DNA of 60,088 nucleotides from Candidatus Woesearchaeota archaeon (GTDB lineage: Archaea; Nanobdellota; Nanobdellia; Pacearchaeales; GW2011-AR1). The stretch covers positions 1 through 60,088 of the forward strand of contig CAYORV010000002.1 in assembly GCA_964406515.1 (NCBI GenBank). Reading direction: 5' to 3'. Position numbers and translations under genes: made by a program. Within the stretch, counting starts at the first letter, position 1, and the number at the start of each line of letters is the position of its first letter. The notes under the pieces were generated by a model, which was not told where the DNA came from, made no database searches, and saw only the letters and a program-made list of their open reading frames with translations. Shown here piece after piece: positions 1 to 56,118 of this stretch.

Positions 1-495
1 ACGTTGATAGAGCTCTTGTGTAAGATAGAAGCTTCGGCGACTATTTCAGCATAGAGCTACTAAAAGCTTTACTTATAGAATCTAAAGGGCGTGGAAATTC
101 TCCTAATGCTTGGGTTGATAATATATAATTCTATACGATAATTTTAGTATAATAATTCTTAAAAACAAATAAATTATTTTAATAATATGAATAAGGAAAA
201 TAAACCAGTGTATAAATTAATTGGAAAGGATGCTATACCTTTTGTTGGGTGGGAAAAATATCTAAAAAGAACGAAAAACGAATCAGAGGCTGCAAGAAAT
301 TTTGATGAATATTAGTTTGGAAATATTGTTCCAAGAATCTCTTTGCTAACACTTTATAACACAGTGGTTTGTACTGGAATAATTGGTGGAATGACGAAAG
401 GAATAGAAGCTTTGTTTGAGAAGGTTCTTTGAGAATTAAAAAACTTTATAAACAATTCTCCCCTCGATAAATTATAAAAGGAGGTTAAAAAATTA

Positions 496-891
496 ATGGT
501 ATTTACATCAGTGGAAATCATTGCCTTGATTTTGATTGCTGTTGTGGCGGTTAAGATGTTGGTCTTGATTGTGAAACCCATGTCGTGGATAAAATTTACA
601 AAAGTTATTTACAAGAAACCAAATGTGACTAAGTTTATTGGAGCAATCTTGGCAGGAGTTATTCTTTATTACTTGATTAATTCAGGTATGACTATTGTGC
701 AGATTTTAGCAGTATCTTTGTTCATGGCTATGATGTTCATAATTGGACTTGCAGGAGACATTGGACCTTTTCTCAAAAAGTATGATACTCAAATTAAAGC
801 AGGGAAGATATGGCAGAAACATTGGTTCTACACACTACTTTGGATTGCATTGTTAGTCTGGGGAGCTTTGGTTTTATTTGAAGTTATTTAA
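496..891 (+). CDS. hypothetical multi-pass membrane protein
   Basis: 131-aa ORF with several hydrophobic helices (VEIIALILIAVVAVKMLVLIV, ILAGVILYYLI, LLWIALLVWGALVLF). An aaggagg SD-like motif lies about 10 nt upstream. Confidence 0.5.
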   Translation: MVFTSVEIIALILIAVVAVKMLVLIVKPMSWIKFTKVIYKKPNVTKFIGAILAGVILYYLINSGMTIVQILAVSLFMAMMFIIGLAGDIGPFLKKYDTQIKAGKIWQKHWFYTLLWIALLVWGALVLFEVI

Positions 892-960
892 CTTTTTTTT
901 ATTTTTCTAATTCTTTTTTATTTTATAGTATGGTTGGAACTCTGAAAGATTTCTTAGAAA

Positions 961-1500
961 TTAGAATCTATAACCTGCATTAACACCCATTCTCATACCA
1001 ATGGTATCAGCAGGGATTTCAATAGGAATTACCAAACCAAACTCTGCACCAACATAAAATCCTTTTGGTTGTTTTCCTAATTCTACTCCAGCACCAAAAT
1101 TAACTCCAAATGTTGGCGACTCTGGTTCACCAATACTTTTTATCCAAGGGGTCATTGTCATCCCGCCCAAAAAACCATAAAGATTTACATTTTTTAGATT
1201 ATGTTTTGTATATCTTAATCTCATATCTGCTGTTATAAAAAATGGGCTTATATCAACTTGACATCCAACTTTTTTGTCCCATCCATAAACAAATCTTAAT
1301 GAAACAAGATGGGGAAGTCCTAATGTCGCGCCAACTTGCATTGAATTGTGTGTGGGTGTTGGAGTTGGTTGAGCCCCATGAAGGTCTAATTTTTGTTCTA
1401 ATCCCTTACTAGGAACAGATACTGCAGCAAGTAAAGCCAATGAAAGAACACCTGCTCCCACTGTTTTGGGAATAGATTTAACATAATCTACAAGTCTCAT
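961..1500 (-). CDS. secreted beta-barrel protein resembling small bacterial outer-membrane proteins (OMP_b-brl/OmpW-like)
   Basis: N-terminal signal-like segment (GAGVLSLALLAAVSVPSKG). Alternating hydrophobic/polar strands rich in G/Y/F (FGVNFGAGVELG, GFYVGAEFGLVI). The C-terminus is ...GVNAGYRF, like an OMP terminal beta-signal. Confidence 0.55.
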   Translation of the reverse strand: MRLVDYVKSIPKTVGAGVLSLALLAAVSVPSKGLEQKLDLHGAQPTPTPTHNSMQVGATLGLPHLVSLRFVYGWDKKVGCQVDISPFFITADMRLRYTKHNLKNVNLYGFLGGMTMTPWIKSIGEPESPTFGVNFGAGVELGKQPKGFYVGAEFGLVIPIEIPADTIGMRMGVNAGYRF

Positions 1501-1600
1501 TTTATTAAAGATAAATTTATGTTTATATATTTTTATGTGATTTAGTTTTCTTTGTGAATATTCTTGAAAGATTTATAAAACATTTTTCCTTTATTGAATT

Positions 1601-1879
1601 ATGAACAAAAGAAGTGAGGCACTATTTAGAAGATTGCGGCATGATGCAATTTTTATTGGTGCGGCGTTGATTGTATTTTTTCTCGTGGATTTTTTTACAG
1701 AACTTTTTACTAAACAAATTCTTAGAATAGTTATATTTATGGCTGGAGGTATTTTGCTTATTTCTGGTTCTCAAAAATATCTTGAAGAACATCCAAAAAT
1801 GAGAAAGATTTTAATTTGGATTCTTGCAGGATTACTGCTTTTAGGACTTGTAATATTTTTTATTGTGAATGCGCTTTGA
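1601..1879 (+). CDS. hypothetical membrane protein
   Basis: 92-aa ORF with three hydrophobic helices. No recognisable family. Confidence 0.45.
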   Translation: MNKRSEALFRRLRHDAIFIGAALIVFFLVDFFTELFTKQILRIVIFMAGGILLISGSQKYLEEHPKMRKILIWILAGLLLLGLVIFFIVNAL

Positions 1880-2011
1880 TTAATTTTTAAGATTCCTTTT
1901 CTTCCCTTTAATTATTCGTCTGGCTAAAAGCACTCCCCCCATAACTAAAAAGATTGTTAGAATCCAATCAAACCAACCCATACTTTGGCTAATAAAATCA
2001 ATGAAGTTCAT
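1880..2011 (-). CDS. possible small membrane protein (43 aa, below ORF-track cutoff)
   Basis: Hand translation gives MNFIDFISQSMGWFDWILTIFLVMGGVLLARRIIKGKKRNLKN: one TM helix plus a basic tail. Confidence 0.3.
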   Translation of the reverse strand: MNFIDFISQSMGWFDWILTIFLVMGGVLLARRIIKGKKRNLKN

Positions 2012-2042
2012 AACTGAAATAATGAAAATTAGTTTTTAAGAA

Positions 2043-2198
2043 TTATTGTTCTTTATTTTTCTTCCTCAATTCTTTTTGATTCAAGATCATTAGAATAATT
2101 GCAGGGATTAGAAAAAGCCAATCTATGAAAAAGGCCATGGCGATAAATCCTAATGCAATTAGAGAATATATCACAACTCGTGGAGATTTTATTTTCAT
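2043..2198 (-). CDS. possible small membrane protein (51 aa, below ORF-track cutoff)
   Basis: Hand translation gives MKIKSPRVVIYSLIALGFIAMAFFIDWLFLIPAIILMILNQKELRKKNKEQ: two TM segments plus a basic tail, the same architecture as the neighbouring small ORF. Confidence 0.3.
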   Translation of the reverse strand: MKIKSPRVVIYSLIALGFIAMAFFIDWLFLIPAIILMILNQKELRKKNKEQ

Positions 2199-2310
2199 GA
2201 TAAATGTAAGGGGGATGGGAATTTAAATGTTGGGATTAGAATTAATATTTATGTGATTTATTGAAGACCATAATTTTTATAAGAGGATTATTTGTATCAT
2301 TTTTATTAAA

Positions 2311-3219
2311 ATGGCAAAATATCTTGAAACAGAAGAAAGATTTGTTGAAAAAAACAGTTTAAGCATTTATTATAAGGAAGTAGGCAAAACTCCTTTATTA
2401 AAAAAGGCGGGGAAAAAATATTATGGAAAAAGACTTATTGAAGGAGATAAAAAAGCTAAAGATGAAGCTAAAGATATATTTGTTAAAACAAATTTAAGAT
2501 ATGTTGTTAGTGAAGCAAAAAAATATCAGAACCAAGGTCTTCCATTAATAGATTTAATAAGTGAAGGAAATATTGGTTTAATGACGGCTGTAGAAAAATT
2601 TAATCCAAAGAAAGGCGAGCTAACTACTTATTCTCAATATTGGATAAGGCAGGCTATTAGGAGGGCCATAGCAAATAAGTCTAGGACTATTCGAATACCC
2701 TTTAAGAGAATAGAAGACTTATGTCACATACAAAAAGAAATGAATTATTTAGAACAAGAAGGTATAGAGTTGGATTTAGAGTTTATAGCCAAGAATTTAA
2801 ACATGTCTGTTAAAAAGGTAACAGAAACATTAAGAGTTGGTCTAAATACTACGTCTCTAGATGCACCTGTAAATGGTGATGATGAAAATTACTTTGTTAA
2901 AGACAGAATTTCTGATAGAAAAATAAATCTAGAAAAAGATGTGATTTATGATAAAGGCTCAGACGTAGAAGAAGAAGCATTTTATACGACTTTAAAAAAA
3001 GACATTAATTCTATCATGAAAATTCTCACTAATCAAGAAGCCGAGATTATAAGATACAGATGTGGTTTAAATGAACATCCTCAATTGTCATTAAGAGAGG
3101 TTGGAAAGATATATGATTTTACAGGAGAGAGAGTAAGGCAAATTGAGAAAAGGGCTTTAAAGAAATTAAGAGAATCACCTAAAGCAGCATGTTTAAGGGA
3201 ATATTTTGAGGTTGAGTGA
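2311..3219 (+). CDS. sigma-70 family RNA polymerase sigma factor (RpoD-like, no region 1.1)
   Basis: Region 2: NLRYVVSEAKKYQNQGLPLIDLISEGNIGLMTAVEKFNPKKGELTTYSQYWIRQAIRRAI. RpoD-like SRTIRIP segment. Region 4.2 HTH: LSLREVGKIYDFTGERVRQIEKRALKKLRE. Confidence 0.85.
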   Translation: MAKYLETEERFVEKNSLSIYYKEVGKTPLLKKAGKKYYGKRLIEGDKKAKDEAKDIFVKTNLRYVVSEAKKYQNQGLPLIDLISEGNIGLMTAVEKFNPKKGELTTYSQYWIRQAIRRAIANKSRTIRIPFKRIEDLCHIQKEMNYLEQEGIELDLEFIAKNLNMSVKKVTETLRVGLNTTSLDAPVNGDDENYFVKDRISDRKINLEKDVIYDKGSDVEEEAFYTTLKKDINSIMKILTNQEAEIIRYRCGLNEHPQLSLREVGKIYDFTGERVRQIEKRALKKLRESPKAACLREYFEVE

Positions 3220-3263
3220 ATAAGTACAATAATCTTTAAAAATAGGTGATTAATGTGTCTGTT

Positions 3264-3683
3264 ATGAAAAAAAAGCTTATGGGACATAAAAAACCTCAAC
3301 ATACCAGAGTTTTTTCTAAAGGAAGGGCAGTGTCAGCACAATATGATTCGGAAAATGATGTGATAAGAACCTATTTTTTAAGGCCCATGATACAAGAAAT
3401 AAAGGATGGTGAATCTATTTCAGAATTCAACAAGAAAAATTATACTAATTTTATTTTAAGTAAAAGTGAACAATCATTAATAACCCCATTAGTACTTTCC
3501 CCAAATTCTATTTATGCTCTCAGGAAAGTATTGAAAAAATCTCTTTCTGATTATCGAAAAGAAATGAGGGGTAAGGCATATAAGATTTGGAGAAGGAAGG
3601 AGGTTGAAGATATTTCATCACTTGTTCAATATCTCGCGCGGGCAGAGAGAGAATTAGAAGGTAAATTTGAAGATTATAAATAA
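3264..3683 (+). CDS. hypothetical protein (basic, no recognised domain)
   Basis: ORF track starts at GTG 3246. The first ATG is at 3264, with aggtga upstream. Co-oriented with and 45 nt downstream of the sigma gene. Confidence 0.45.
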   Translation: MKKKLMGHKKPQHTRVFSKGRAVSAQYDSENDVIRTYFLRPMIQEIKDGESISEFNKKNYTNFILSKSEQSLITPLVLSPNSIYALRKVLKKSLSDYRKEMRGKAYKIWRRKEVEDISSLVQYLARAERELEGKFEDYK

Positions 3684-3896
3684 AATGGAACATTATGTAT
3701 TATATGATAATAAAGAAGAACCTTATGCTGTGTTAGAGTTGGATTCTGCTAATGGAGTTGGTAAGGTTTTGAATGATATTTATTTTGAAGGACAGGGAAA
3801 AGTAAAAAAATTTTAGAAACTATTTTCTCATTATAAGTTTCTTCGTTAATCTCATTTCCCATTTCTTTTTCATATTTTTGGGGTTTATAGGGGTTT

Positions 3897-4142
3897 CTAC
3901 TTAATTTTCTCTATCTCTTCATAGAAATCTTTTAGGTTTTGACTTTCCCATAATTCTTTAAGATGATTATCTGATTCCACTAATTCCCCACCTTTCTTTG
4001 TTAAATTCCACTTGTAAGTATAAGCCCCATGTTCTTTTGTTCTCTCTTGTGCAATTATCCCAAGATTTTCTAATTTGTAAAGATAAACTTTTTGTTTTCT
4101 TCCTTCATCATCTGGAATTACTGTAAAATATTCTCCGCCCAT
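3897..4142 (-). CDS. hypothetical small protein (possibly winged-helix-like)
   Basis: 81-aa ORF lying 2 nt downstream of ORF 4145..4498 on the same strand, so a likely two-gene operon. Confidence 0.45.
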   Translation of the reverse strand: MGGEYFTVIPDDEGRKQKVYLYKLENLGIIAQERTKEHGAYTYKWNLTKKGGELVESDNHLKELWESQNLKDFYEEIEKIK

Positions 4143-4144
4143 TT

Positions 4145-4498
4145 TTATTTTATATTGTGAAACTTACACCAATCTTCACCCATTTGCTGTAAAACAGTTT
4201 TTTCTTCTTTATTCAAATTTATTAGTTTTCCGGCGTTTGAGCCATCAGATTGATTCACATAACTAAATCCTGATTCATTTGAAAATCTTTTGTAACTGTT
4301 AATGATTGTTGTATTGCCAGGAGTTTTAATAGTTAAACCTTTATTTAAAAAATTAGTCTGAGGTAGTTCGACATTATAATCGCTACTCCCAACAACATTC
4401 TTAGAATCACCATACATCGGTAACTTATTTACGTCATCGAAAAAAACACTAACTCCAAGTATTGCCATTAAATTCATATTATTTGTACCTCCTTTCAT
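4145..4498 (-). CDS. hypothetical protein
   Basis: 117-aa ORF with aggagg upstream of the start. No recognisable motif. Confidence 0.4.
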   Translation of the reverse strand: MKGGTNNMNLMAILGVSVFFDDVNKLPMYGDSKNVVGSSDYNVELPQTNFLNKGLTIKTPGNTTIINSYKRFSNESGFSYVNQSDGSNAGKLINLNKEEKTVLQQMGEDWCKFHNIK

Positions 4499-4616
4499 CG
4501 GTATTCATTATGAATTTTACCATGTAAATCTATTATTTCACAAGGGCTCAAACTATTTAAGAATTATTGTGCCCCCAACATTTAAAACTCATCCTTTCTT
4601 CTTTCTTTCATAAAAG

Positions 4617-4838
4617 ATGGTGAATGTAGAAGCAATAATATTTTATGGGATGGCCTTTGAGGTCATCATGGCGAATATCTTGGCATGGTTTGTACCGGGT
4701 TTTGATAAATGGTATGGAAAAACAATGCCTCGACTTTCTAAACGTCTCCCACTCACAAAAGCATGGGCTATTGTATATTTCGGACTTGCTGTTTGGGTAG
4801 GTTCTGGTTTATATCGGGCTGGAATTCTGCCTTGGTGA
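4617..4838 (+). CDS. hypothetical small membrane protein
   Basis: 73-aa ORF with two hydrophobic helices. Confidence 0.4.
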   Translation: MVNVEAIIFYGMAFEVIMANILAWFVPGFDKWYGKTMPRLSKRLPLTKAWAIVYFGLAVWVGSGLYRAGILPW

Positions 4839-4860
4839 TGTTGAAGTTTCTATTTATTCA

Positions 4861-5226
4861 TCACATAATCAAAATATAATCTTTAAGAATTTTTGCTAAA
4901 TCAAATTTTGGCATTAGGTCTTTTTCTGCTCCTTTTCCACGTTCAAAAGTTGCTAGATATAAACAATTAGGTGAGCTTTCAAAATGTGAACCATTAGCGA
5001 TTACTCCTACAGGCAAGCTTGTAGTTAACAATTCTTCCTCGTCAATAAAACCACCATATATCTCAAAACCTTTTTCTCTTAAATGAATCTTAGTCTGTTC
5101 ATTAGAGTCTAATTTATTCAACATTTTCATAAGTCCTCCCGCATATAATTGAGAAAGAGAAGTTATTTTTTGTGATTGGATATTTCTATCAACAGCAAAC
5201 TTTTTTTCTATGTATTCTGTTTCCAT
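4861..5226 (-). CDS. hypothetical protein
   Basis: 121-aa ORF with no recognised motif. Confidence 0.45.
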   Translation of the reverse strand: METEYIEKKFAVDRNIQSQKITSLSQLYAGGLMKMLNKLDSNEQTKIHLREKGFEIYGGFIDEEELLTTSLPVGVIANGSHFESSPNCLYLATFERGKGAEKDLMPKFDLAKILKDYILIM

Positions 5227-5271
5227 GTTTTTTGAATATAACTTTAGTTTAAAAGAATTATTGTGATTGGA

Positions 5272-5733
5272 TTATTCAACAACGCTTGCCTTAATTATTG
5301 TGGCATCTTCGATAGGTTTGTCTTGTGCATTTTTTGGGAGTTTTGCGATTTTGTCAACGACATCCATTCCTTCAACTACTTTTCCGAATACAGGATGCTT
5401 TCCGTCTAAGAAATTATTATCAACTAAATTTATGAAGAACTGGCTTCGTGCTGTGTTTGGTCCTGCATTTGCCATTGAGATTGTTCCTCTGCTGTTTTCA
5501 TCTAAAGATGTTTGTGTGAATTCGTCCTGGATAATCGGAATACTTGAATCGCCCATTCCTGTTCCTGTTGGATCTCCGCCTTGAATCATGAATTCGTCGA
5601 TAATTCTGTGGAAAATTACTCCATTATAAGTTCCTTGCTCTGCCAAGTTCTTGAAATTGCCTGCAGTAATTGGCATTTCCTTGTAGAGTTCTATAATTAT
5701 GTCTCCGTGATTTGTTTCTAGCTTCACTTTCAT
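5272..5733 (-). CDS. cyclophilin-type peptidyl-prolyl cis-trans isomerase
   Basis: Cyclophilin motifs: FHRIIDEFMIQGGDPTGTG, GTISMANAGPNTARSQFFI, HPVFGKVVEGMDVV. Confidence 0.95.
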   Translation of the reverse strand: MKVKLETNHGDIIIELYKEMPITAGNFKNLAEQGTYNGVIFHRIIDEFMIQGGDPTGTGMGDSSIPIIQDEFTQTSLDENSRGTISMANAGPNTARSQFFINLVDNNFLDGKHPVFGKVVEGMDVVDKIAKLPKNAQDKPIEDATIIKASVVE

Positions 5734-5792
5734 ATTTAAAATAAATAAGAAGAGTTTATATTGATTTATGTAAAAGAGAGGATTGTATTAAA

Positions 5793-6155
5793 CTAATTTA
5801 TTCCAATGAGTTTTAATTTGAAATTTAAAGTTTCTCCTGCAAGGGCATGAGTTAATCCCGAACCTGCCTCTCCATAAGCATCTTTTGGTAGGATGGAGAC
5901 TTCTTTTTCCTCTCCAATTCTCATTCCAATCACTGCTTCATCAAAACCTTTAATTACCTGACCAGAACCTATTTCAAATTCAATGGTTGAAGCATCAATA
6001 ACTTTTCCGTCATCTAATCTTAATTCATATTCCACATTAATCACATCTCCAATTTTTGCCTTAAAATCTTCTGTTGTATTTCCTGTCATTTTGATTGTTA
6101 AAAAACTTGCAAGAAAAACGACACCTATGATCATCATTATTCCTGCCTTTTTCAT
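5793..6155 (-). CDS. FKBP-type peptidyl-prolyl isomerase with N-terminal membrane anchor or signal
   Basis: N-terminal hydrophobic helix, then an FKBP core (V.VEYELRLDDGKVIDAS, GSGQVIKGFDEAVIGMRIGEEK). Confidence 0.85.
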   Translation of the reverse strand: MKKAGIMMIIGVVFLASFLTIKMTGNTTEDFKAKIGDVINVEYELRLDDGKVIDASTIEFEIGSGQVIKGFDEAVIGMRIGEEKEVSILPKDAYGEAGSGLTHALAGETLNFKLKLIGIN

Positions 6156-6189
6156 ATTAGAAAAAAGAAAAAGTTATTTTTAAAGTTTC

Positions 6190-6540
6190 TTATTCGCAAT
6201 CACCATCAACCCAGTATTCTACTTCTTCTTCCATGCATGCGAAACAAGAATTGCTATATGTTTCTTCTTCGGGATAACCACAAACAGGTTCGTATAGTGT
6301 GATGCAGGCATCTACTTGTCTTGATTCTGGTGCGCAGTAGTTTTTGTTTTCATCGACGTCAGGACATGCCTCAAACTCACAATCTGGAGGAATTCTTACA
6401 ACACTTGTTCCATCAGAACACAATCGTGCGTCCTCTGTACATACGACTGGCTTTTTTTGGACAGAGTAGTAAATTGAAAATCCAACAACAATTAATACAA
6501 TTATTATTGCAATTACATCTCGTTGATTCAACTTTTTCAT
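6190..6540 (-). CDS. secreted/anchored Cys-rich protein with Kazal-like domain
   Basis: N-terminal TM or signal segment. C-terminal pattern C..6..C.TLYEPVCGYPEEETYSNSCFAC...C matches the Kazal inhibitor signature (PVCG...TY.N.C). Confidence 0.6.
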   Translation of the reverse strand: MKKLNQRDVIAIIIVLIVVGFSIYYSVQKKPVVCTEDARLCSDGTSVVRIPPDCEFEACPDVDENKNYCAPESRQVDACITLYEPVCGYPEEETYSNSCFACMEEEVEYWVDGDCE

Positions 6541-6690
6541 ATAATATTAAAACAAGCGGATATTTAATATTTTCTCTTGGAGTGGGACGCGATTTCTGAG
6601 TTTAGAGCTAACACTATATCCTAAAAAATAAAAACACCCCTAATGAAACAAATAAATAAAAAATAAAAAAATTATGATTCTAAATTTTAC

Positions 6691-6975
6691 TTAGAATCTT
6701 CTTCTTTGTTGGAAGTCCCTTCTTGGGGGTCTATCTTCCATTGGCTTTGCTTCAGAAACCTTAAGCTCTCGACCGTCAACGTCTTTCCCGTTGAATTCTT
6801 CAATTGCTTTTTTTGCGGCTTCATCGTCTGAAATTGTTACAAAACCAAAACCTTTTGATCTACCTGAAAACTTATCTTTGATAAGAGTAACTTCTTCAGT
6901 TTCATATCCTGAAAAAAGTGCTTTAAACCCTTCTTCATCGACACTAAAAGGTAAATTACCTACATATATCTTCAT
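6691..6975 (-). CDS. RRM-domain RNA-binding protein
   Basis: RNP2 motif IYVGNL and RNP1 motif KGFGFVTI, with an R-rich C-terminal tail. Confidence 0.9.
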   Translation of the reverse strand: MKIYVGNLPFSVDEEGFKALFSGYETEEVTLIKDKFSGRSKGFGFVTISDDEAAKKAIEEFNGKDVDGRELKVSEAKPMEDRPPRRDFQQRRRF

Positions 6976-7090
6976 TTTATCCTCCTTACACTTGTTGATT
7001 AGAACTAGCTCCTATTACTAGACTGTGTTTACATTTAACTAACATAAATATGCTTAATGAAAGAGGTTTTTAAAGGTTTTGGGTGATTAA

Positions 7091-7363
7091 TCACAACCCA
7101 AAATTCTCAATTAAATTCTCTATAACTCGATATTCTTGTAAAAAATCTTGACCTTTTTTTGTGAGTGAGAAAGTTTTCTTTTCTTTGGCGTCTATTTCTA
7201 ATTTGATAAAGTCCTTGGTGATTAATTCATTAATATATTCCTTGAACATTTGAGGCGAAAGATTTGAAGCGTAAAGCAACCTAGTTGGTTTGATGTTTCT
7301 ATTTGACCGAATTGATTCAAGTACATCCTTGATAACTTCTAATCTTTCTCGTTTTCTTACCAT
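7091..7363 (-). CDS. winged-helix DNA-binding protein
   Basis: 90-aa ORF resembling small archaeal wHTH proteins (KPTRLLYASNLSPQMFKEYINELITKDFI). Lies 1 nt downstream of ORF 7365..8024. Confidence 0.55.
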   Translation of the reverse strand: MVRKRERLEVIKDVLESIRSNRNIKPTRLLYASNLSPQMFKEYINELITKDFIKLEIDAKEKKTFSLTKKGQDFLQEYRVIENLIENFGL

Positions 7364-7364
7364 T

Positions 7365-8024
7365 TTATTTTTTTGTGACTTTCATAACACCATATAAGAA
7401 CAATAAAAAGATGGCGGTATTTATCATGTAAACCCCTGTTACAAATCTCAATCTCCATAAGTATAATGCTGCGAAAGCATTCAACGACCAGGCCCCTAAA
7501 CTCAATAACATTGCTGCAAAATAAAATTTAAGGAATTTGTGTTTTTTTCCATTATTTTTATAGTTCTTGAAAGATATAATTGATGCCAAAATAAAGAGAG
7601 CAATCTGAGAGAAAAACATAAAGATATATGTTCCCAAAAGATTATCTATTAATGCTATTATTAAAGCCATAGAATAAAACAAGAAAATCCTTGGATTGAA
7701 TAACGAACTATTGTAATTTTTAGAAGATGTTTCAAGGCGTTTCCATAAAAGACTATATAGTAAGAAAAAACCTGCCATTATCAAGAAAAATTCAAAGAAT
7801 ATATTCAAAAATTTAAAGGGAAGGGCGGGTATTTCTAATAAACTCCTTATTACAAAGCCCACTCCGTAAAATAAAAAAGCATTTCGCAAATATCTTATTC
7901 CTTTGTGCGAGCTTAAATTAAAAAGCCTGTCTGTTTTTACCACAATAATTGCGCAAACTAAAGCTATTACAAATGTATAGAAAAACTTTAATAATTCTTT
8001 GTTCTCGACCATCCATTCAAACAT
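7365..8024 (-). CDS. hypothetical polytopic membrane protein
   Basis: 219-aa ORF with about 6-7 hydrophobic helices. Confidence 0.55.
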   Translation of the reverse strand: MFEWMVENKELLKFFYTFVIALVCAIIVVKTDRLFNLSSHKGIRYLRNAFLFYGVGFVIRSLLEIPALPFKFLNIFFEFFLIMAGFFLLYSLLWKRLETSSKNYNSSLFNPRIFLFYSMALIIALIDNLLGTYIFMFFSQIALFILASIISFKNYKNNGKKHKFLKFYFAAMLLSLGAWSLNAFAALYLWRLRFVTGVYMINTAIFLLFLYGVMKVTKK

Positions 8025-13931: not shown

Positions 13932-13982
13932 ACTTTTTTATAGATAACAAACCTTAAAAACTCTTTTTTTCTGGTATTTTTG

Positions 13983-14346
13983 TAAGTCAGGTAGTTAACT
14001 TCGGGACTAGCTTTTGAATAAGCAAACTTCGTATATCGAAATTAGTTCTGAGGAAGGTCCGCCCACCAATGTAAGGAACCAAGGTTCCTTGACAGTCAAC
14101 CTCTTTTAAGGATGGTTCATGACTGATTAAAGTTGTCGTTGAAAAACGATTGTCGTGAGGCAAAGCTCTGGTAAAGAAACGCCACAGTTCCTGTTGAGCA
14201 ATGAACTCTTGGAGGAAGCTAAGAGACAGGAGATTTGATGAAACGAGCATCTCAACTGGTGCAAGGCTATATGCCGCATAGTGGAATGTTAACACGTTCT
14301 GTTCGCTTCGGCGAAGAACGACAGAAGGTGGCCTATTCCTGACTTA
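13983..14346 (+). ncRNA. rnpB: RNase P RNA (archaeal; ends approximate)
   Basis: CR-I/P4 5' strand gaggaaggtccgccc (consensus GAGGAAAGUCC) near 14050. CR-V/P4 3' strand acagaaggtggcctattcc (consensus ACAGAAnnnGGCUUA) near 14321. P1 pairs 5' taagtcagg (13983-13991) with 3' cctgactta (14338-14346). A UUCG-capped helix gttcgcttcggcgaac and a ggtaaagaaacgcc CR-II/III-like segment are also present. Confidence 0.75.
14071..14103 (+). repeat. hairpin-plus-tail motif, copy A (inside RNase P RNA)
   Basis: Sequence gtaaggaaccaaggttccttgac + agtcaacctc. It contains the 8-bp palindrome AAGGAACC/GGTTCCTT. Confidence 0.8.
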
Positions 14347-14348
14347 TG

Positions 14349-15123: not shown

Positions 15124-15168
15124 TATATTAGTCCTCGCGGGGCGGATTCGCTACAACTCAAATCCTAT

Positions 15169-15240
15169 GGGAATGTAGCTCAGCGGGAGAGCACATGACT
15201 GAAGATCATGGTGTCCGGGGTTCGACTCCCCGCATTCCCA
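15169..15240 (+). tRNA. tRNA-Phe (anticodon GAA), no encoded CCA, no intron within the mature sequence
   Basis: Hand-folded cloverleaf: acceptor GGGAATG/CATTCCC, D arm GCTC-AGCGGGA-GAGC, anticodon arm CATGA-CTGAAGA-TCATG, variable GTGTC, T arm CGGGG-TTCGACT-CCCCG, discriminator A. Confidence 0.95.
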
Positions 15241-15274
15241 TAACTTTTATAAATAAGGTTTGTTTAATTTGATT

Positions 15275-16157: not shown

Positions 16158-17552
16158 ATGTCGATAAAACTTTACAACACTATGTCTAGAAAGAAAGAGG
16201 TTTTTGTCCCGATTAAAAAAGGGCATGTTGGAATTTATGCGTGCGGGCCGACTGTTTATTGGTATCAGCATATTGGGAACATGAGGACTTTTATTTCTAA
16301 TGATTTAATTCGTAGGGTTTTTTTATATAATGATTTTAAAGTTAAGGAAGTGATAAATGTAACAGATGTGGGGCATTTGACTTCTGATGCAGATACTGGT
16401 GAGGATAAAATGGAGCGGGCGGCGAAAAAAGAGGGAAAAAAAGCTTCTGATATTGCAGAGTATTATTTTGATGTTTTCAAGAAAGATTTGCAAAAGTTGA
16501 ATGTTCTTGAACCTGATATTTGGCCAAAGGCAAGCGAGCATATTAAAGAACAAATTGATTTAATAAAAATTTTAGAGAAAAAAGGATATACTTATGAGAC
16601 AAAAGATGGAATTTATTTTGATACTTCTAAGTTAGAAGATTATGGGAAGTTGGCTAGGTTAAATGTTGAGGAATTGAAAGCTGAAAAAAGAATTGCATTG
16701 AAAGAAAAGAAAAGTAAAACCGATTTTGCTTTGTGGAAATTTTCAGAAGAGCCAGGGAAGAGACAGCAAGAATGGAAGTCGCCTTGGGGTGTTGGGTTTC
16801 CTGGATGGCATATTGAATGTTCGGCTATGTCTTCGAAATATTTGGGAAAACAATTTGATATTCACACAGGAGGGCAAGAGCATATTCCTGTTCATCATAC
16901 AAATGAAATCGCTCAGAGTGAAACTGCGTTTGGGAAAAAGCCGTGGGTGAAATACTGGATTCATTTTGCTTGGTTATTATTTAAGGGCGAGAAAGTCAGC
17001 AAGAGCAAGGGGGGACTGTATACTCTTTCTGAATTAGAAGAAAAAGGTTATGGTGCTTTGGCATTTAGATTTTTTTGCCTTTTGAAAAGTTATAACAAAC
17101 CTTTGAATTTTACAATTGAAGGTTTGAATGCTTCAATGAAATCTTACAAAAGATTAAAGGATTTGCTTTCTGAATTAAAGAAAAGTAAAGATAAAAAGAA
17201 TCAAAAAAATATTGAAGGAGCGAAAAAACAATTTTTAGAAATTATTAATGATGATTTTAATTCTCCAAAGGCTGTTGCGTTTATGTGGGATATTTTAAGG
17301 GATAATCGATTGAATGATTCTGAGAAATATGAACTTGCATTAGATTTTGATAGAGTTTTTGGGTTGGACTTAGATAAAGAGGATGAAGAAGTTAAGATTC
17401 CTGGGAAAGTGAAAAAGTTAGTTGATGAAAGAGAGAAAGCGAGGGAGAAAAAAGATTGGAAAATGGCAGATGAGTTGAGGAAGAAAATTAATAAAGAGGG
17501 ATATTCTGTTAATGATACAAAAGATGGTGCTGTTGTAAAAAAAGATGGTTGA
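16158..17552 (+). CDS. cysS: cysteinyl-tRNA synthetase
   Basis: Class I motifs HIGN (HIGH) and KVSKS (KMSKS), plus the PGWHIECS zinc/Cys-binding segment. Confidence 0.95.
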   Translation: MSIKLYNTMSRKKEVFVPIKKGHVGIYACGPTVYWYQHIGNMRTFISNDLIRRVFLYNDFKVKEVINVTDVGHLTSDADTGEDKMERAAKKEGKKASDIAEYYFDVFKKDLQKLNVLEPDIWPKASEHIKEQIDLIKILEKKGYTYETKDGIYFDTSKLEDYGKLARLNVEELKAEKRIALKEKKSKTDFALWKFSEEPGKRQQEWKSPWGVGFPGWHIECSAMSSKYLGKQFDIHTGGQEHIPVHHTNEIAQSETAFGKKPWVKYWIHFAWLLFKGEKVSKSKGGLYTLSELEEKGYGALAFRFFCLLKSYNKPLNFTIEGLNASMKSYKRLKDLLSELKKSKDKKNQKNIEGAKKQFLEIINDDFNSPKAVAFMWDILRDNRLNDSEKYELALDFDRVFGLDLDKEDEEVKIPGKVKKLVDEREKAREKKDWKMADELRKKINKEGYSVNDTKDGAVVKKDG

Positions 17553-18801
17553 GAAATTTGATTTTATAGATTTAGGATATAAACCAAAAAATGATTTGGT
17601 CTGTTTGTTTAGAATTACTCCTAATAGAATTTCTATGAAAAAGGCTGCGAATACTGTGGCTCTTGAGAGTAGTGTTGGTACATGGACAAAAGTTGGGAGT
17701 ACCAAAGATTATGTTGAGAAATTAAGAGCGCGAGTTTTTTCTATTCAGGGTAAAAATGTGAAGATTGCTTATCCACGAGAATTGTTTGAGTCTGATAATG
17801 TTCCGAACATATTATCTTCTGTTGCGGGGAATATTTTTGGGATGAAGGCTGTTAAAACAATTAGGTTAGAAGATGTTTCTTTTCCCCAGAGTATTTTAAA
17901 AAGTTACAAGGGACCAAAATATGGAATTAAAGGAATAAGGAAACTTTTGAAAGTTAAAAATCGGCCGTTAGTTGGAACAATTATAAAACCGAAGCTGGGT
18001 TTGAAAACAAAAGACCATGCGCAATCTGCTTATGAATCTTGGATTGGGGGTTGTGATATTGTTAAGGATGATGAGAACCTTGCTTCGCAAAAGTTTAATG
18101 TTTTTGAAGAGAGGATTGCTAGGACTTTGGAAAAAGCGCATAAATCTGAGGAAGAAACAGGGGAGAAAAAAGCGTATCTTGTTAATGTTACTGCTGAGAC
18201 AAAGGAGATGATGAAGCGCGCGCAGATTGTTGAAGATTTGGGAGGCAAGTATGTTATGGTGGATATTATTACTGCTGGTTGGGCGGCGTTGCAAACTTTG
18301 AGAGAGGGTGGTTTTAAAATGGCAATTCATGCGCATAGAGCAATGCACGCTGCTTTTGACAGAAACCCAGAACATGGAATTAGTATGATGGTGCTTGCTG
18401 ATTTTGCTAGAATCATCGGAGTTGATCAAATTCATATTGGAACTGGAATTGGAAAATTAGAAGGAGATATTGGGGATGTGGAGGATATTGCAGAGGAAAT
18501 TTCAATGAAAGATGTTAAGGCGACTCAAAATAGGCTCGCGCAAAAATGGGGCAAGATAAAGTCTGTTTTACCTGTTTCTTCTGGAGGGTTGCATCCAGGA
18601 CATGTTCCTTTCTTAATGAAACATCTTGGGAAAGATTTGGTTATACAAGCTGGTGGGGGAATTCACGGACATCCTCAAGGAACTAAGGCAGGAGCAATGG
18701 CAATGAGGCAAGCTGTTGATGCTGTGATGAAAAAGAAAACATTGAAAGAATATTCTAAGACGCATGGGGAATTAGGAGAAGCGTTGGGGAAGTGGAGATA
18801 A
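17545..18801 (+). CDS. rbcL: ribulose-1,5-bisphosphate carboxylase large subunit, form III-like
   Basis: Active-site segments GTIIKPKLGL, GGCDIVKDDENL, HAHRAMHAA, SSGGLHPG and QAGGGIHGHP. About 418 aa with no small subunit nearby. The start overlaps the cysS stop (ATGGTTGA). Confidence 0.92.
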   Translation: MVEKFDFIDLGYKPKNDLVCLFRITPNRISMKKAANTVALESSVGTWTKVGSTKDYVEKLRARVFSIQGKNVKIAYPRELFESDNVPNILSSVAGNIFGMKAVKTIRLEDVSFPQSILKSYKGPKYGIKGIRKLLKVKNRPLVGTIIKPKLGLKTKDHAQSAYESWIGGCDIVKDDENLASQKFNVFEERIARTLEKAHKSEEETGEKKAYLVNVTAETKEMMKRAQIVEDLGGKYVMVDIITAGWAALQTLREGGFKMAIHAHRAMHAAFDRNPEHGISMMVLADFARIIGVDQIHIGTGIGKLEGDIGDVEDIAEEISMKDVKATQNRLAQKWGKIKSVLPVSSGGLHPGHVPFLMKHLGKDLVIQAGGGIHGHPQGTKAGAMAMRQAVDAVMKKKTLKEYSKTHGELGEALGKWR

Positions 18802-34455: not shown

Positions 34456-35484
34456 ATGGGCAGACAAACTCGTATTGCAATTGTCGGTTATGGAAATATA
34501 GGAAGAGGTGTTCATAAAGCAATTGGAAGAAATCTAGATATGAGTCTTGTGGGAATTATATCAAGAGATCCTGAAAGAGTAGAAAGAGAGATTAATAATG
34601 TTGATGTTTTTAATGCTAATAATGAGGACAAATGGAGCGGATTACTAGTTGATGTTGCTATGTTGTGTGGTGGTTCAGCAAAAGATCTTCCTGTGCAAGG
34701 ACCTTGTTTTGCGAAATTTTTTAATACAGTAGATAGTTTTGACAATCATAAACACATAGGACCATATGCTAATGAAGAAACTGGAGAACTTATGCCTGGA
34801 TATTATCAGGATATGGATGCTTCTGCAAGAAAAGGGAAGCATACTTCAATTATTTCAATAGGTTGGGACCCTGGAACATTTTCTATGGAAAGAATTTTAG
34901 CAGATTCTTTTTTCCCAGGAACAAAAGCTTATGGGTTTTATGGACTAAGTGAAAAAGGTGGATTAAGTATGGGTCATTCTGATGCAATAAGACGAGTTGA
35001 AGGTGTTAAAGATGCAAGACAATACACGCATGCAATTCCTGAGGCTATGGAAAGAGTAAAATCTGGTGAAAATCCTGATTTAAAACCAGGAGAAATGCAT
35101 TGGAGAGAATGTTTTGTTGTTGCTGAAGAAGAATATGATATTGGAAAGATAGAAGAAGAAATAAAAAAAATGCCTAATTATTTTGAACCATATAGAACAG
35201 AAGTCTATTTTGTTAGTGATGAAGAAATGAAAAGAGACCATTCTGATATGCCACATGATGGGGTTGTAATAGCTGCTTCAGAGACTGGAGATAGAAATAA
35301 AATTTTAATTGAACATCAAAATACATGGGATAGTAATCCAGAAGCTACTGCTAGTATTATGGTTGCTTATGCAAGAGCTACTTATAGGTTAAATCAAAAA
35401 GGAGATTATGGAGCAAAGACAATACTTGATATTGCACCTGCTCTTATTAGTCCACATTCTAAAGAAGAATTAATAAAAGTTTAA
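34456..35484 (+). CDS. ddh: meso-diaminopimelate D-dehydrogenase
   Basis: Close pattern match to Corynebacterium-type Ddh: RIAIVGYGNIGRGV, GWDPGTFS, LSMGHSDAIRRVEGVKDARQYT and MPHDG. Confidence 0.85.
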   Translation: MGRQTRIAIVGYGNIGRGVHKAIGRNLDMSLVGIISRDPERVEREINNVDVFNANNEDKWSGLLVDVAMLCGGSAKDLPVQGPCFAKFFNTVDSFDNHKHIGPYANEETGELMPGYYQDMDASARKGKHTSIISIGWDPGTFSMERILADSFFPGTKAYGFYGLSEKGGLSMGHSDAIRRVEGVKDARQYTHAIPEAMERVKSGENPDLKPGEMHWRECFVVAEEEYDIGKIEEEIKKMPNYFEPYRTEVYFVSDEEMKRDHSDMPHDGVVIAASETGDRNKILIEHQNTWDSNPEATASIMVAYARATYRLNQKGDYGAKTILDIAPALISPHSKEELIKV

Positions 35485-35485
35485 G

Positions 35486-36775
35486 ATGGAAGATGCTTCT
35501 GGTTTAGAACCTTTAAGTTCTGTTGTGAGTGAAGACCAAGTAAGAGAAATTGCTGAAGAGTTTGGGACACCTGTTTATGCTTATTCTGAGAGACTTTTAG
35601 AACAACAGGCAGATAAAGCTTTGGCATTTCCAAATGCTTTTGGGTTGACTGTTCGATATGCTATGAAAGCAAATTCAAATATTAATATTTTGAAAATATT
35701 TAATAGAAAGGGGCTGGATATTGATGCCTCTTCTGGAGAAGAAGCTGAAAGGGCTATGGCGGCTGAGATAAATCCTGCACAGATTTTACTGACTTCTCAG
35801 AAGGTTCCAAAAAATTTGAAAACCCTTATAGCTAAAGGTGTTGAATATAATGCATGTTCATTTCATCAGTTAAGAGAGTATGGGAAGTTAGGATTAAATT
35901 CAGAAGTTTCTGTGAGGATAAATCCAGGGTTGGGTTCTGGTGGAACAAATAGAACAAATACTGGCGGGCCTGCTTCTAGTTTTGGGATTTGGCATGAACA
36001 AATTCCAGAAATTTTAAGGATTGCAGGAGATTATAAATTGAATATAAGAAGAATTCATACTCATATTGGTTCTGGAAGTGATCCTGAAGTTTGGAAAAAA
36101 GTTGCTGGAATGAGTTTAGATATTGTTGAAAAATTTCTTGATGGGGGGCATCTTGTTCAGATATTAAATCTTGGTGGAGGTTATAAAGTCGGAAGAATGG
36201 ATTATGAGAAATCTACTGATTTACAAGAGTGTGGAGAACCTGTTAAAGAATCATTTATGGATTTTAAAAGGAAGAATGGAAACGAATTAAAATTAGAAAT
36301 TGAACCCGGAACTTTTCTTGTTGCTAATGCTGGTTGTTTGATTGCAAAAGTTGAGGATATTAAATCTACTCCAAATTATAATTTTTTAATAACAGATTCT
36401 GGAATGACCGAAGTTACTCGGCCATCTTTATATGGGGCGCAGCACCCTATTTCTGTTGTTCCTGGGAGAAACTCTTCTGATGAAGGTAAAAAGATTGTAG
36501 AATATATCGTTTCTGGAAAGTGTTGTGAATCGGGGGATATTTTGAGTCCTGCTGAAGGAGATTCTGAAGCATTAAAACCCAGAGAGTTGTTAGAAGCAAG
36601 TATAGGGGATTTAGCTGTTGTTGGGGGAACTGGTGCATATTGCTCGTCAATGAGTACTGCGGGATATAATTCTTATCCTAGAGCTGCAGAAGTTTTGATT
36701 AGAGAAAAACCTCAGTTAATAAGAGCCAGAGGTACCCTCGAGGATCTTACTCGTAATGAACTCAAAGTTGTATAA
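35486..36775 (+). CDS. lysA: diaminopimelate decarboxylase
   Basis: Fold-III PLP decarboxylase motifs YAMKAN, HTHIGSG, LGGGY, EPGTFLV and CESGD. Adjacent to ddh. Confidence 0.88.
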   Translation: MEDASGLEPLSSVVSEDQVREIAEEFGTPVYAYSERLLEQQADKALAFPNAFGLTVRYAMKANSNINILKIFNRKGLDIDASSGEEAERAMAAEINPAQILLTSQKVPKNLKTLIAKGVEYNACSFHQLREYGKLGLNSEVSVRINPGLGSGGTNRTNTGGPASSFGIWHEQIPEILRIAGDYKLNIRRIHTHIGSGSDPEVWKKVAGMSLDIVEKFLDGGHLVQILNLGGGYKVGRMDYEKSTDLQECGEPVKESFMDFKRKNGNELKLEIEPGTFLVANAGCLIAKVEDIKSTPNYNFLITDSGMTEVTRPSLYGAQHPISVVPGRNSSDEGKKIVEYIVSGKCCESGDILSPAEGDSEALKPRELLEASIGDLAVVGGTGAYCSSMSTAGYNSYPRAAEVLIREKPQLIRARGTLEDLTRNELKVV

Positions 36776-44551: not shown

Positions 44552-45796
44552 TTATTTTTTCTTGCCTTTTGCAATTTTCAAAAGATTAACTGGTTTTTTT
44601 GCGCCCTTATATTTTTTCTTGAAAAACCAGATTAGAAAACCAATTGCAACTATTAAAATTAAAATCCCAATTATTTTTCCGGTTGAACTAGGTTCTTCTT
44701 TTTCCTGACAAGTTCCTACACAGCAGATATTATCTTTTGCACGAATTATTTCTTCACTACTGCACACTTCATCTCTAGAACAAATTGGATATCCTCTTTC
44801 TGCACAAGTCTGAGTTGTATATTCAGGTTGGGGCACTTCTGAAGGCGTATAATTTGTTAAAAATTTTACAGAAATTTGTGAATAAATTATTTGAGTTCCT
44901 TGTTTTGCTTTTATATGCCCTTCAACTTCAAACTCTTCTTCAGATGTGAAAGTCAATTCTATTGGAAGATTTGAATTAGGATCAAGTTTGTTTATATTTT
45001 CTTCTGACACTGTTACATAATTTTTTAATGAATTGGACAATGAGAGAGTGATATCTTTTATTGCTTCATCTCCTGTGTTATAAAGATAAATTGTTCTCCT
45101 TGTTTCTGAATCGGTTGGAACAGAAACAATTACTTTTTGTGGTTCAAATTTAAAGATTTCTTGTTCTTGAATTTCTATTGCTGGAATATCAGCAGGAATA
45201 TTGTAAATTAAATCAGCTGTGCTTAACTCAATTATTTTGAATTCTGATTCTTGTAATTCAAAAAGGAAATCTATTTCTTGTTTTTGACCTGATTTTAGAA
45301 TTATTGAATCTTTGTAAGTTTCTCCAGAAGCATTTGCATTTTCTTTTGTTTTTATTTCAATTGTTATTTCTCTATCTTGTAAATTTTGGACCTCTATTGA
45401 AAATTCATTATCATTTGCAAAACCAGGATTTACTGAAAAGTCTGCTGTTTTATTGTTTATTGTAAAATCTCTTTTTATATCTTCTTCACTTATTTCACTT
45501 CCTTTCATGTATTTTATATTTTCTAAAGCAATAGAATAATTATTTGATTCTTTTCCTGAAAGTAAAGCATAAATGTAATATTCATCATTGATTTTTCTTA
45601 TATCATATTCGAGGGGGATTCTTACATGTGTTCTGTAAAAAAATACATTTTCTTTTTGGAGGGGCTGGAGGAAATTGCCAGCAACTTTTGCAATCAAAGT
45701 TTCTCCTTGACTGAATTCTTCTTTTACATCAAATTCTACTGCAGAAATTATTGGGAAGATTAAAAGAAATAAAAGTAAGAATGCAAATGTTTTCAT
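44552..45796 (-). CDS. surface protein: signal peptide, beta-rich ectodomain, Cys module, C-terminal TM anchor
   Basis: N-terminal signal MKTFAFLLLFLLIFPIISA. Cys module CAERGYPICSRDEVCSSEEIIRAKDNICCVGTC. TM helix plus a K-rich tail. Confidence 0.65.
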   Translation of the reverse strand: MKTFAFLLLFLLIFPIISAVEFDVKEEFSQGETLIAKVAGNFLQPLQKENVFFYRTHVRIPLEYDIRKINDEYYIYALLSGKESNNYSIALENIKYMKGSEISEEDIKRDFTINNKTADFSVNPGFANDNEFSIEVQNLQDREITIEIKTKENANASGETYKDSIILKSGQKQEIDFLFELQESEFKIIELSTADLIYNIPADIPAIEIQEQEIFKFEPQKVIVSVPTDSETRRTIYLYNTGDEAIKDITLSLSNSLKNYVTVSEENINKLDPNSNLPIELTFTSEEEFEVEGHIKAKQGTQIIYSQISVKFLTNYTPSEVPQPEYTTQTCAERGYPICSRDEVCSSEEIIRAKDNICCVGTCQEKEEPSSTGKIIGILILIVAIGFLIWFFKKKYKGAKKPVNLLKIAKGKKK

Positions 45797-45797
45797 T

Positions 45798-48841: not shown

Positions 48842-48925
48842 AAGGAAAAAAACCGTCAAAAGTTTAAATAAATACCTCATCTAAACTATAACAATACTTA
48901 AAAAATAAATCCTACTTTAAATTAG

Positions 48926-49651
48926 ATGTTAGTTAAATTAGATAATCCTTTGCTTCTTTCAAAGGTGATTGATATTCTCTCTGAACTTGTAACAGAAGTC
49001 AGGATAAAATTTAATGAATTTGGACTTAGCATAGGAGCGATTGATCCTGCTAATGTAGCATTGGTCAGCTTTAAATTACCAAAAAGTTCTTTTAGCCAAT
49101 TTGAAACTGGAGAAGAAGTATTGGGGATTAATCTTGATGATTTAAAGAGGATTTTGAAAAGATGTGGGGGTGGAAGTTCATTGATTTTAGAAAAAAAAGA
49201 AAACTTTTTGAATATTCTAATTCAAGATAAAATCAAACGAAATTTTAGTTTAAATTTGATTGAAGTTGAAGCTGAAGAAAAAGAAATTCCAGAATTAGAA
49301 TATACTGCGCGGGTAGAAATAAGTTCTTCAGATTTAATTGATTCTGTTGAAGATTGCTTGGTTGTTGCAGATGCTTGTTCATTTATTGTGCAAGAGGGAA
49401 AATTTATTATTGAAGCTAAAGGAATAAATTCTGCAATGTCTGAGTTTTCTGGAGATGAAGCAAAAATTGAGGCAGAAAATTGCAAGGTGAGATATAGTTT
49501 AGAATATTTGCAAAAATTTATGAAGGGAGCAAAACTTGTTGAAAAAACAATTTTGAATTTTGCAGAGGACCACCCATTGAAATTGGACATCAAATCAGAA
49601 CACATGGAACTCAATTTTTTGTTGGCTCCTAGGGTGGAAAATGAAGATTGA
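48926..49651 (+). CDS. pcn: DNA polymerase sliding clamp (PCNA)
   Basis: 241-aa ORF with a PCNA-like two-domain pattern (LSELVTEVRIKFNEFGLSIGAIDPANVALVSFKL...). Divergent from the primase gene. Confidence 0.88.
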   Translation: MLVKLDNPLLLSKVIDILSELVTEVRIKFNEFGLSIGAIDPANVALVSFKLPKSSFSQFETGEEVLGINLDDLKRILKRCGGGSSLILEKKENFLNILIQDKIKRNFSLNLIEVEAEEKEIPELEYTARVEISSSDLIDSVEDCLVVADACSFIVQEGKFIIEAKGINSAMSEFSGDEAKIEAENCKVRYSLEYLQKFMKGAKLVEKTILNFAEDHPLKLDIKSEHMELNFLLAPRVENED

Positions 49652-50917: not shown

Positions 50918-50918
50918 A

Positions 50919-52652: not shown

Positions 52653-52653
52653 A

Positions 52654-56113: not shown

Positions 56114-56118
56114 TAAAA

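Follow-up and report, generated by a model that had tools for sequence, protein, structure and literature searches.

A divergent sigma-70 family gene on a DPANN archaeal contig

To our knowledge, archaeal transcription starts with TBP, TFB and TFE, and no use for sigma factors is known in it. The closest described systems are sigma-70 genes of the DPANN archaea. According to a 2018 review, archaeal sigma factors were first described by Rinke et al. 2013 (PMC6126073), and Castelle et al. 2021 surveyed a sigma-70 family, fam00359, that occurs in DPANN and is particularly prevalent in Woesearchaeota; these authors ruled out mis-binning, did not find any anti-sigma factors and did not decide on a mechanism (PMC8204110). 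There are also reports of rpoS-like genes from DPANN viruses and from a prophage (PMC12647753). In this study, we have explored a sigma-70 family gene at positions 2311..3219 of a 60,088-nucleotide stretch of DNA from Candidatus Woesearchaeota archaeon (contig CAYORV010000002.1, assembly GCA_964406515.1), referred to below, at its full length, as the window.

Compared by description, the gene resembles those of fam00359 and of Rinke et al. 2013 in being of the sigma-70 class, in lying on a DPANN-type contig with verified linkage and in having no detectable anti-sigma factor. No relative above 47% identity was found among 15 billion proteins (90% clustering) besides the protein itself and a truncated sister allele, so that the gene, set against fam00359 by description, would represent at least a divergent branch of the known DPANN kind. 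Like the rpoS-like genes of DPANN viruses, again compared by description, it encodes a divergent RpoS-like sigma factor in DPANN; unlike them, it has no surrounding viral hallmark genes or PHROG matches and no relative in IMG/VR. It is a new, rather divergent case of the already reported, unexplained sigma-70 genes of DPANN. The novelty implied in the first-pass annotation of this DNA, which was made from the sequence alone, was therefore overstated, since such genes have already been published for DPANN and especially for Woesearchaeota (PMC8204110, PMC6126073).

A sigma factor kept under selection in an archaeon is a real functional puzzle. It dates in the literature from 2013, with a survey in 2021, and our single locus leaves the state of knowledge as it was. 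What is added here is evidence of long residence (composition, an archaeal promoter, purifying selection and a position shared with a distant relative) and a residue map that separates what has been kept (the core-binding residues and the greater part of regions 2.4 and 4.2) from what has changed (the melting residues and the equivalent of R584). The reading that we favour, to which we give a probability of about 0.55, is that a bacterial sigma-70 gene was acquired long ago by an ancestor of a DPANN cluster-2-type lineage and is now a resident, selected chromosomal gene.

The sigma-70 protein and its residues

The open reading frame (ORF) at 2311..3219 encodes a true sigma-70 protein, and the first-pass annotation was right to describe it as an intact, RpoD-like member of this family. 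Its parts are as follows.

2311..3219, plus strand: sigma-70 family gene, 302 amino acids, ATG start; group-2-like, with regions 1.2-2-3-4 and no region 1.1
2356..2451, plus strand: region 1.2, residues 16-47; weak in Pfam, aligns to region 1.2 of SigA and RpoS
2482..2688, plus strand: sigma-2 domain, residues 58-126, regions 2.1-2.4
2725..2886, plus strand: sigma-3 domain, residues 139-192; a diverged region 3.2 and linker come next
3016..3174, plus strand: sigma-4 domain with the region 4.2 helix-turn-helix, residues 236-288

Three Pfam profiles match above their cutoffs, namely Sigma70_r2 (PF04542; E 4.6e-15, 55.6 bits against 24), Sigma70_r4 (PF04545; E 8.5e-13, 48.1 bits against 24.1) and Sigma70_r3 (PF04539; E 1.2e-6, 29 bits against 25.3), and the match to Sigma70_r1_2 is weak (18.9 bits, under the cutoff of 22). 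Solved chains of SigA, RpoD and RpoS align with the protein from region 1.2 to the C-terminus at E values of 1e-50 to 1e-38, the best alignment in the PDB being to SigA (5.5e-51), and the KSRTIRIP segment and the 4.2 helix-turn-helix are both covered. In an AlphaFold model built with 60 homologues as input (pLDDT 76), sigma-2, sigma-3, a disordered region 3.2/linker (residues 178-216) and sigma-4 can be recognized, with the sigma-3 helices at high pLDDT. When this model was compared with the PDB using Foldseek, the top 50 matches were all SigA, RpoD or RpoS chains (E 5e-16 to 6e-13). The possibility that the similarity was spurious, against which the first-pass annotation had proposed a profile check, thus finds nothing in its favour in either the profile or the fold search.

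Because region 1.1 is absent, the architecture is group-2/RpoS-like; the N-terminus starts about 15 residues ahead of region 1.2. Among described sigma factors, the group 2 sigma RpoS of E. coli (PDB 5ipl) has the same domain architecture and aligns end to end at E 1e-41. The window sigma differs from it in scoring 202 bits against a 379-bit equivalog cutoff, and in its setting, since no bacterial core RNA polymerase (RNAP) gene was found among the window ORFs scanned and -10/-35 motifs are not enriched. We consequently rejected an RpoS equivalog (TIGR02394, 201.7 bits against 378.7), and also a primary group 1 RpoD/SigA, given the absence of region 1.1 and the scores obtained with NF004208 (230 against 555 bits) and with the NCBIfam model of the RpoD C-terminus, TIGR02393 (214 bits against an equivalog cutoff of 354). 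The sigma-70 C-terminal domains of MzaA, from the MZA anti-phage system, match the protein as well (204 bits in NCBIfam, 128 bits in PADLOC). This candidate was discarded because the match concerns the generic sigma part only (profile positions 471-716 of 726) and reaches 204 bits against a cutoff of 800; no neighbour of the gene matches other Mza components in PADLOC. The isoelectric point (pI) was set aside as an uninformative discriminator, since short bacterial sigma factors are often basic too.

For the residue map, E. coli sigma-70 numbers were taken from alignments to PDB chains and homologues. The protein keeps 55 of the 59 columns that are conserved at 90% or more in 142 diverse sigma representatives, which themselves keep 57 in the median and never fewer than 49. 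The core-binding motif of the sigma-2 domain, IDLISEGNIGLM (pattern DLIxEGNxGLM), is kept: D403, E407, N409 and M413 of region 2.2 are present, and Q406 is replaced by Ser, as in the family of Spirochaetota sigma factors considered below. The -10/melting region reads G-ELTTYSQYWIRQ. Within regions 2.3/2.4, responsible for -10 melting and reading, Y430, W434, R436, Q437 and R441 are kept, the Y425 equivalent is deleted, and four residues are substituted (F427L, A431S, W433Y and T440R). Region 3.0 retains E458 and carries H455K. In region 4.2, which reads the -35 element, the equivalents of E585, R588 and Q589 are kept and that of R584 is Gly (Lys in the Spirochaetota family). Judging from these alignments, the polymerase- and DNA-binding surfaces appear largely intact and the classical -10/-35 melting and reading residues partly altered. 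The changes among the -10 melting residues and at the R584 position make an altered promoter specificity of the protein probable.

Archaeal setting, relatives and selection

The archaeal context proposed in the first-pass annotation is confirmed by several markers on the contig that carries the sigma gene: an archaeal RNase P RNA (13982-14347), S19e, PCNA, Cbf5, a class I lysyl-tRNA synthetase, a RuBisCO large-subunit homologue and a fused primase. The fusion of PriS and PriL is a synapomorphy of Undinarchaeota and DPANN cluster 2 (PMC7414124). Together, these observations show that the window contig is archaeal and of DPANN cluster-2 type. Two features are needed here.

47558-48880, minus strand: fused primase, a single 440-amino-acid protein with PriS and PriL domains
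2274..2282, plus strand: archaeal-type TATA box of the sigma gene, TTTTTATAA after CATAA, 35-37 nt before the ATG

The identical sigma protein, with the same neighbours, is found in contigs of four assemblies (three from the European Nucleotide Archive, ENA, and one independent Logan assembly from a different run). Identity across the join is 99.9-100%, and one of these contigs reaches 13.2 kb, to a P-type ATPase, at 99.99%. The source samples are represented by ENA assemblies ERZ27315476, ERZ27315773 and ERZ27315627 and by run SRR5458845. GC content is uniform along the window, at about 30-32%. The relative synonymous codon usage (RSCU) of the sigma gene correlates with that of the rest of the window at r = 0.85, mid-range among window genes, and its GC content at third codon positions is 0.20, in agreement with the host-like codon usage noted in the first-pass annotation; the genes of the nearest bacterial homologues give r = -0.13 to -0.57 against the window.

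A TTTAWAW TATA box begins 26-29 nt ahead of the ATG in 32 of the 64 window genes (exactly at -29 in 18 of them) and is often preceded by CATAA or CAATAAT, forming a CATAA-N-TTTAWAW element. A Shine-Dalgarno-like motif is present in only 10 of the 64. The position of the TATA box, at -29 to -26 in half of the genes, implies that the mRNAs of the window would be mostly leaderless and of archaeal type. Examples of genes showing this signature are 1500-, 1601+, 3264+, 6155-, 8024-, 12309-, 15275+, 16158+, 47546- and 50156+, and the signature can be used to verify start codons in the window. The sigma gene has its own archaeal-type box, with no Shine-Dalgarno motif ahead of its ATG, and archaeal promoters also precede the next ORF downstream and the genes flanking the sigma gene. 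The composition and promoter of the sigma gene are fully adapted to the host. Because the four assemblies agree, the GC content is uniform, the codon usage is host-like and the promoters are archaeal, we conclude that the join between the sigma gene and the archaeal contig is real and that a mis-join is very unlikely. The first-pass annotation had named a mis-join of positions 1-5 kb from a bacterial genome as what could undo its interpretation, and these data speak against it.

Relatives of the protein were searched for with a word index over 5.8 billion clusters and, exhaustively, with HMMER over 1.84 billion representatives; leaving aside the protein itself, neither search gave a match above 47% identity. 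The best-scoring HMMER relative, P0126, is 44% identical, and the bulk of the best matches are sigma factors of about 290 amino acids with 43-45% identity, every named one of which comes from Spirochaetota. These short sigma factors, annotated as RpoD/SigA (in Sphaerochaetaceae, Alkalispirochaeta and Rectinema, for example), have the same r1.2-2-3-4 architecture without region 1.1 and a similar length. They share the block AKKYQNQGLPLxDLISEGNIGLM with the window sigma, including the Q406S equivalent. There are also clear differences. The Spirochaetota proteins keep Y425, F427, W433 and a Lys at R584, whereas the window sigma differs at all four, and they do not have its 11-amino-acid linker insertion. 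Unlike the window gene, theirs have a GGAGG Shine-Dalgarno motif 6-8 nt before the ATG, a GC content of 45-52%, and a distinct synteny (Cpn10 - x - sigma - PPDK, near penicillin-binding proteins, signal peptidase and histidine kinases).

Two metagenomic proteins are likely clade-mates with about 42% identity to the window sigma, P0126 on a TARA scaffold (L017) and P0130 on a Logan contig (L018). Both share with it a clade-specific linker motif of the pattern YD..(S/T)D(V/I)E.E..Y..LK.DI, which in the window sigma reads YDKGSDVEEEAFY and falls in the region of its 11-amino-acid insertion, and P0126 has the same one-residue deletion in region 2.3. In a neighbour-joining tree, P0126 and P0130 group with the window sigma (bootstrap 32/60), and the sister group of this clade is formed by short bacterial sigma factors that include the Spirochaetota family. 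The contigs of the clade-mates are low in GC, with RSCU correlations to the window of 0.79 and 0.93, and a TATA or near-TATA box lies about 28-29 nt before the ATG of their sigma genes and of the neighbouring genes. On L018, one small ORF separates the sigma gene from a downstream cyclophilin gene on the opposite strand, which is 70% identical to the window gene 5272-5733 and matches it in relative position and orientation. The two sigma genes of the clade found on L017 lie in tandem (26-511 and 572-1423), a duplication of a putatively archaeal sigma gene. The shared motif, the clustering, the codon usage, the promoters and the cyclophilin synteny, taken together, suggest long vertical retention of the gene in an archaeal lineage. 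When the clade alignment was used as a profile, behind a word-index pre-filter, the Spirochaetota family came up once more and P0130 was not listed; the archaeal clade would have at least two members besides the window sigma. A scan of GTDB species genomes with the protein gave only an unrelated Ferruginibacter sigma (33% identity), and a scan of Joint Genome Institute (JGI) metagenomes gave only high-GC bacterial primary sigma factors (40% identity) and a fragment of the sister allele.

The sister allele of the locus is present on four short contigs (L009-L012). Between the window sigma and the L009 allele, residues 241-302 give a dN/dS of 0.13 with a dS of 0.22 (over 62 codons, 7 changes are synonymous and 4 non-synonymous). 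Region 4 of the sigma, at least, is thus shown to evolve under purifying selection.

Possible roles, the downstream island and rival explanations

If the gene is a long-resident acquisition, as we favour, it would be expressed by the archaeal TBP/TFB machinery, and its product could regulate transcription in the archaeal cell by binding specific DNA sequences through its sigma-2 and sigma-4 surfaces. It may also dock on the clamp coiled-coil of RNAP. This coiled-coil is conserved between bacterial beta-prime and archaeal Rpo1. Such a role as a repurposed transcription regulator fits the evidence from the residues and domains. A bolder variant, which we hold to be unlikely though worth stating, is that the domesticated sigma modulates TBP/TFB-dependent initiation, globally or specifically under stress, working via the archaeal machinery itself. 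In that case the Rpo1 clamp coiled-coil, which is homologous to the clamp helices of beta-prime, would be the docking site of the preserved region 2.2 surface; another possibility, which could hold together with the first, is that the surface that reads the -10 element would bind the TATAAT-like archaeal TATA boxes (TTTAWAW) ahead of most genes. If this were true, a working hybrid of the transcription systems of two domains of life would have been retained in a DPANN lineage.

Several points weigh against long residence of a selected regulator. The estimate of selection rests on 62 codons of one allele pair, the bootstrap of the clade is only about 53%, and the archaeal identity of the clade-mates is deduced from promoters, composition and one syntenic gene on contigs of 2-4 kb. 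No RNAP partner is visible either: our Pfam scan took in all plausibly coding window ORFs of at least 150 amino acids (ORF 49648-50103 and ORFs nested in or opposite annotated genes were skipped) and found no bacterial rpoA/B/C among them, as the first-pass annotation had observed, and archaeal rpo genes are likewise absent from the window. The changes at Y425, F427, W433 and R584 could mean that promoter melting and -35 reading have been lost, and not that specificity has shifted. Finally, matches to sigma-70-type promoters in positions 1-8000 are at chance level (37 against 35.7 +/- 5.0 expected), and therefore no regulon can be proposed for the window sigma.

Some of the rival explanations depend on what lies directly downstream of the sigma gene.

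3264..3683, plus strand: basic ORF without known family (ORFan), 139 amino acids, pI 9.8; starts 45 nt after the sigma stop
3235..3241, plus strand: candidate TATA box of the ORFan, TTTAAAA, exactly 29 nt before its ATG
3685..3816, plus strand: mini-ORF of 43 amino acids, of doubtful reality, without its own promoter or conservation in the sister allele
3264..4571, no strand: strain-variable island directly downstream of the sigma gene, from BLASTN of L009 against the window

The first-pass annotation had already pointed to a basic, uncharacterised ORF 45 nt downstream and to a 43-amino-acid mini-ORF; we corrected the length of the former from 140 to 139 amino acids and the coordinates of the latter from 3686..3817 to 3685..3816. 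The box at 3235-3241 indicates that the ORFan probably has its own leaderless archaeal promoter, placed within the 45-nt spacer and the end of the sigma gene, and, because of this box at -29, it need not be co-transcribed with the sigma gene. Its sole homologue in the database is the sister allele P0125 (63% identity). Because the reading frame survives two in-frame indels between the alleles with a dN/dS of 0.45 (dS 0.53), the ORFan is a real but weakly constrained, fast-evolving gene. No family or fold was found for it in Pfam, NCBIfam, PHROGs, PADLOC or the PDB, and its single-sequence AlphaFold model is uninformative (pLDDT 50).

The comparison of L009 with the window delimits the island. 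The end of the sigma gene and the ORFan (3030-3699) are 80.5% identical in BLASTN; window 3700-3805 is replaced in L009 by about 1.3 kb with three unrelated ORFans; identity is 94.6% over 3806-3897; and window 3898-4571, which holds two genes on the minus strand encoding an 81-amino-acid winged helix-turn-helix-like protein (weak MarR/BilQ match) and a 117-amino-acid protein, is absent from L009. From 4572 onward the two are 100% identical. Two co-occurring strains thus carry different ORFan cassettes (window 3264-4571 and L009 1-2603), and the sigma gene adjoins what looks like a recombination-prone, strain-specific island.

This island is one of the reasons to consider that the sigma gene could be cargo of an integrated virus or mobile element, redirecting transcription during infection or serving as an auxiliary gene of a DPANN provirus: gene content next to it differs between otherwise 100%-identical strains, most of its neighbours are small ORFans, and DPANN viruses, as well as a DPANN prophage, are reported to carry rpoS-like genes (PMC12647753). 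However, no neighbour matches in PHROG or PADLOC, the Pfam and PHROG scans of neighbouring ORFs gave no integrase (no search for repeats was made), some 12 kb separate the gene from the only tRNA (15168-15241), phage sigma factors are at most 39% identical and so lower than bacterial ones, and the clade motif occurs in no IMG/VR contig. The composition of the gene matches the host, and the location beside the cyclophilin gene is retained in a relative of about 42% identity. These negatives apply to a window with only about 2.3 kb of sequence ahead of the sigma gene, so that the left boundary of an element could lie outside it. We regard viral cargo as distinctly unlikely, and the suggestion in the first-pass annotation of a remnant of a mobile element or virus received no positive support. 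Less likely again is that the sigma and the ORFan form a functional pair, with the ORFan as a rapidly changing partner of an anti-sigma-like or adaptor type. The genes have the same orientation with 45 nt between them, the ORFan is real, and the sigma genes of L017 and L018 are also followed by a small co-oriented ORF, 34-48 nt downstream. On the other side, the three downstream ORFs have no detectable homology to each other (BLASTP E 0.02-0.04; hhalign probability 0.3%), the ORFan has its own TATA box, its model gives no help, it shows no anti-sigma domain or other match in Pfam, NCBIfam or the PDB and no Cys/His motif, and published surveys found no anti-sigma factors in DPANN (PMC8204110). 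The ORFan would rather be a separate, rapidly evolving transcription unit, and it is not demonstrable as a partner of the sigma.

The first-pass annotation also raised the idea of an effector that would take control of the RNAP of a bacterial host or neighbour. For such a delivered protein we found no positive support, and we place this explanation below the pair in likelihood. The residues for binding a bacterial core are largely intact, but the melting residues that are key in bacterial holoenzymes are altered (Y425 equivalent deleted, F427L, W433Y), the N-terminus (MAKYLETEERF...) has, as judged by eye, no hydrophobic signal-peptide-like stretch, Pfam finds no domains beyond the sigma regions, and the known DPANN hosts are archaea (PMC8204110). 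A non-functional leftover of horizontal transfer, drifting to loss, would agree with an archaeon having no known use for a sigma factor and with the change of several normally invariant residues. We consider it very improbable, because the ORF is intact over 302 amino acids, its composition is fully ameliorated, which points to long residence, 55 of 59 near-universal residues are kept, dN/dS is 0.13, and intact relatives exist at about 42% identity, on one contig as a tandem duplicate. An assembly or binning artefact, with the first 5 kb being bacterial DNA joined to an archaeal contig, comes last, as an extremely unlikely explanation: sigma-70 is a bacterial hallmark and the upstream gene 961-1500 weakly matches a bacterial outer membrane beta-barrel (E 0.0017, below cutoff), but the join recurs in the three ENA assemblies and in the Logan one, and the GC content, the codon usage and the leaderless promoters before the sigma gene, the ORFan and the flanking genes are those of the archaeal host. 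Each of these explanations is less well supported than the acquisition and long residence of a bacterial sigma-70 gene, and the window sigma is a reasonable candidate for binding tests against archaeal and bacterial RNAP.

Other genes in the window

Just upstream of the sigma gene, the minus-strand gene 961-1500 encodes a protein of 179 amino acids with an N-terminal hydrophobic segment and a PTPTPT linker; given its sub-threshold OMP_b-brl match, it may be another bacterial-derived gene. On the other side, also on the minus strand, the cyclophilin gene (5272-5733), an FKBP-type peptidyl-prolyl isomerase with a membrane anchor (5793-6155) and an RRM-type RNA-binding protein with a glycine/arginine tail (6691-6975; NCBIfam Rbp_regulator, 3e-25) make up a group of small proteins, clustered close to the sigma gene, with a bacterial or eukaryotic flavour.

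Further along the window, at 34456-36775 (plus strand), bacterial-type lysine biosynthesis is represented by a meso-diaminopimelate dehydrogenase gene beside a diaminopimelate decarboxylase gene, and these may be another bacterial acquisition. At 16158-18801 (plus strand), the gene for cysteinyl-tRNA synthetase overlaps that of the RuBisCO large-subunit homologue by 8 nt (17545-17552); this arrangement suggests that the two genes, although functionally unrelated, could be co-transcribed. Two large minus-strand ORFs at 44552-47546 (414 and 582 amino acids, no Pfam match) are reported as lying immediately upstream (5') of the fused primase gene. Finally, seven consecutive co-oriented ORFs at 50156-57173 (plus strand), of 253, 598, 682, 158, 310, 198 and 160 amino acids, have no Pfam match, and several of them overlap by a few bases, which gives this stretch an operon-like look.

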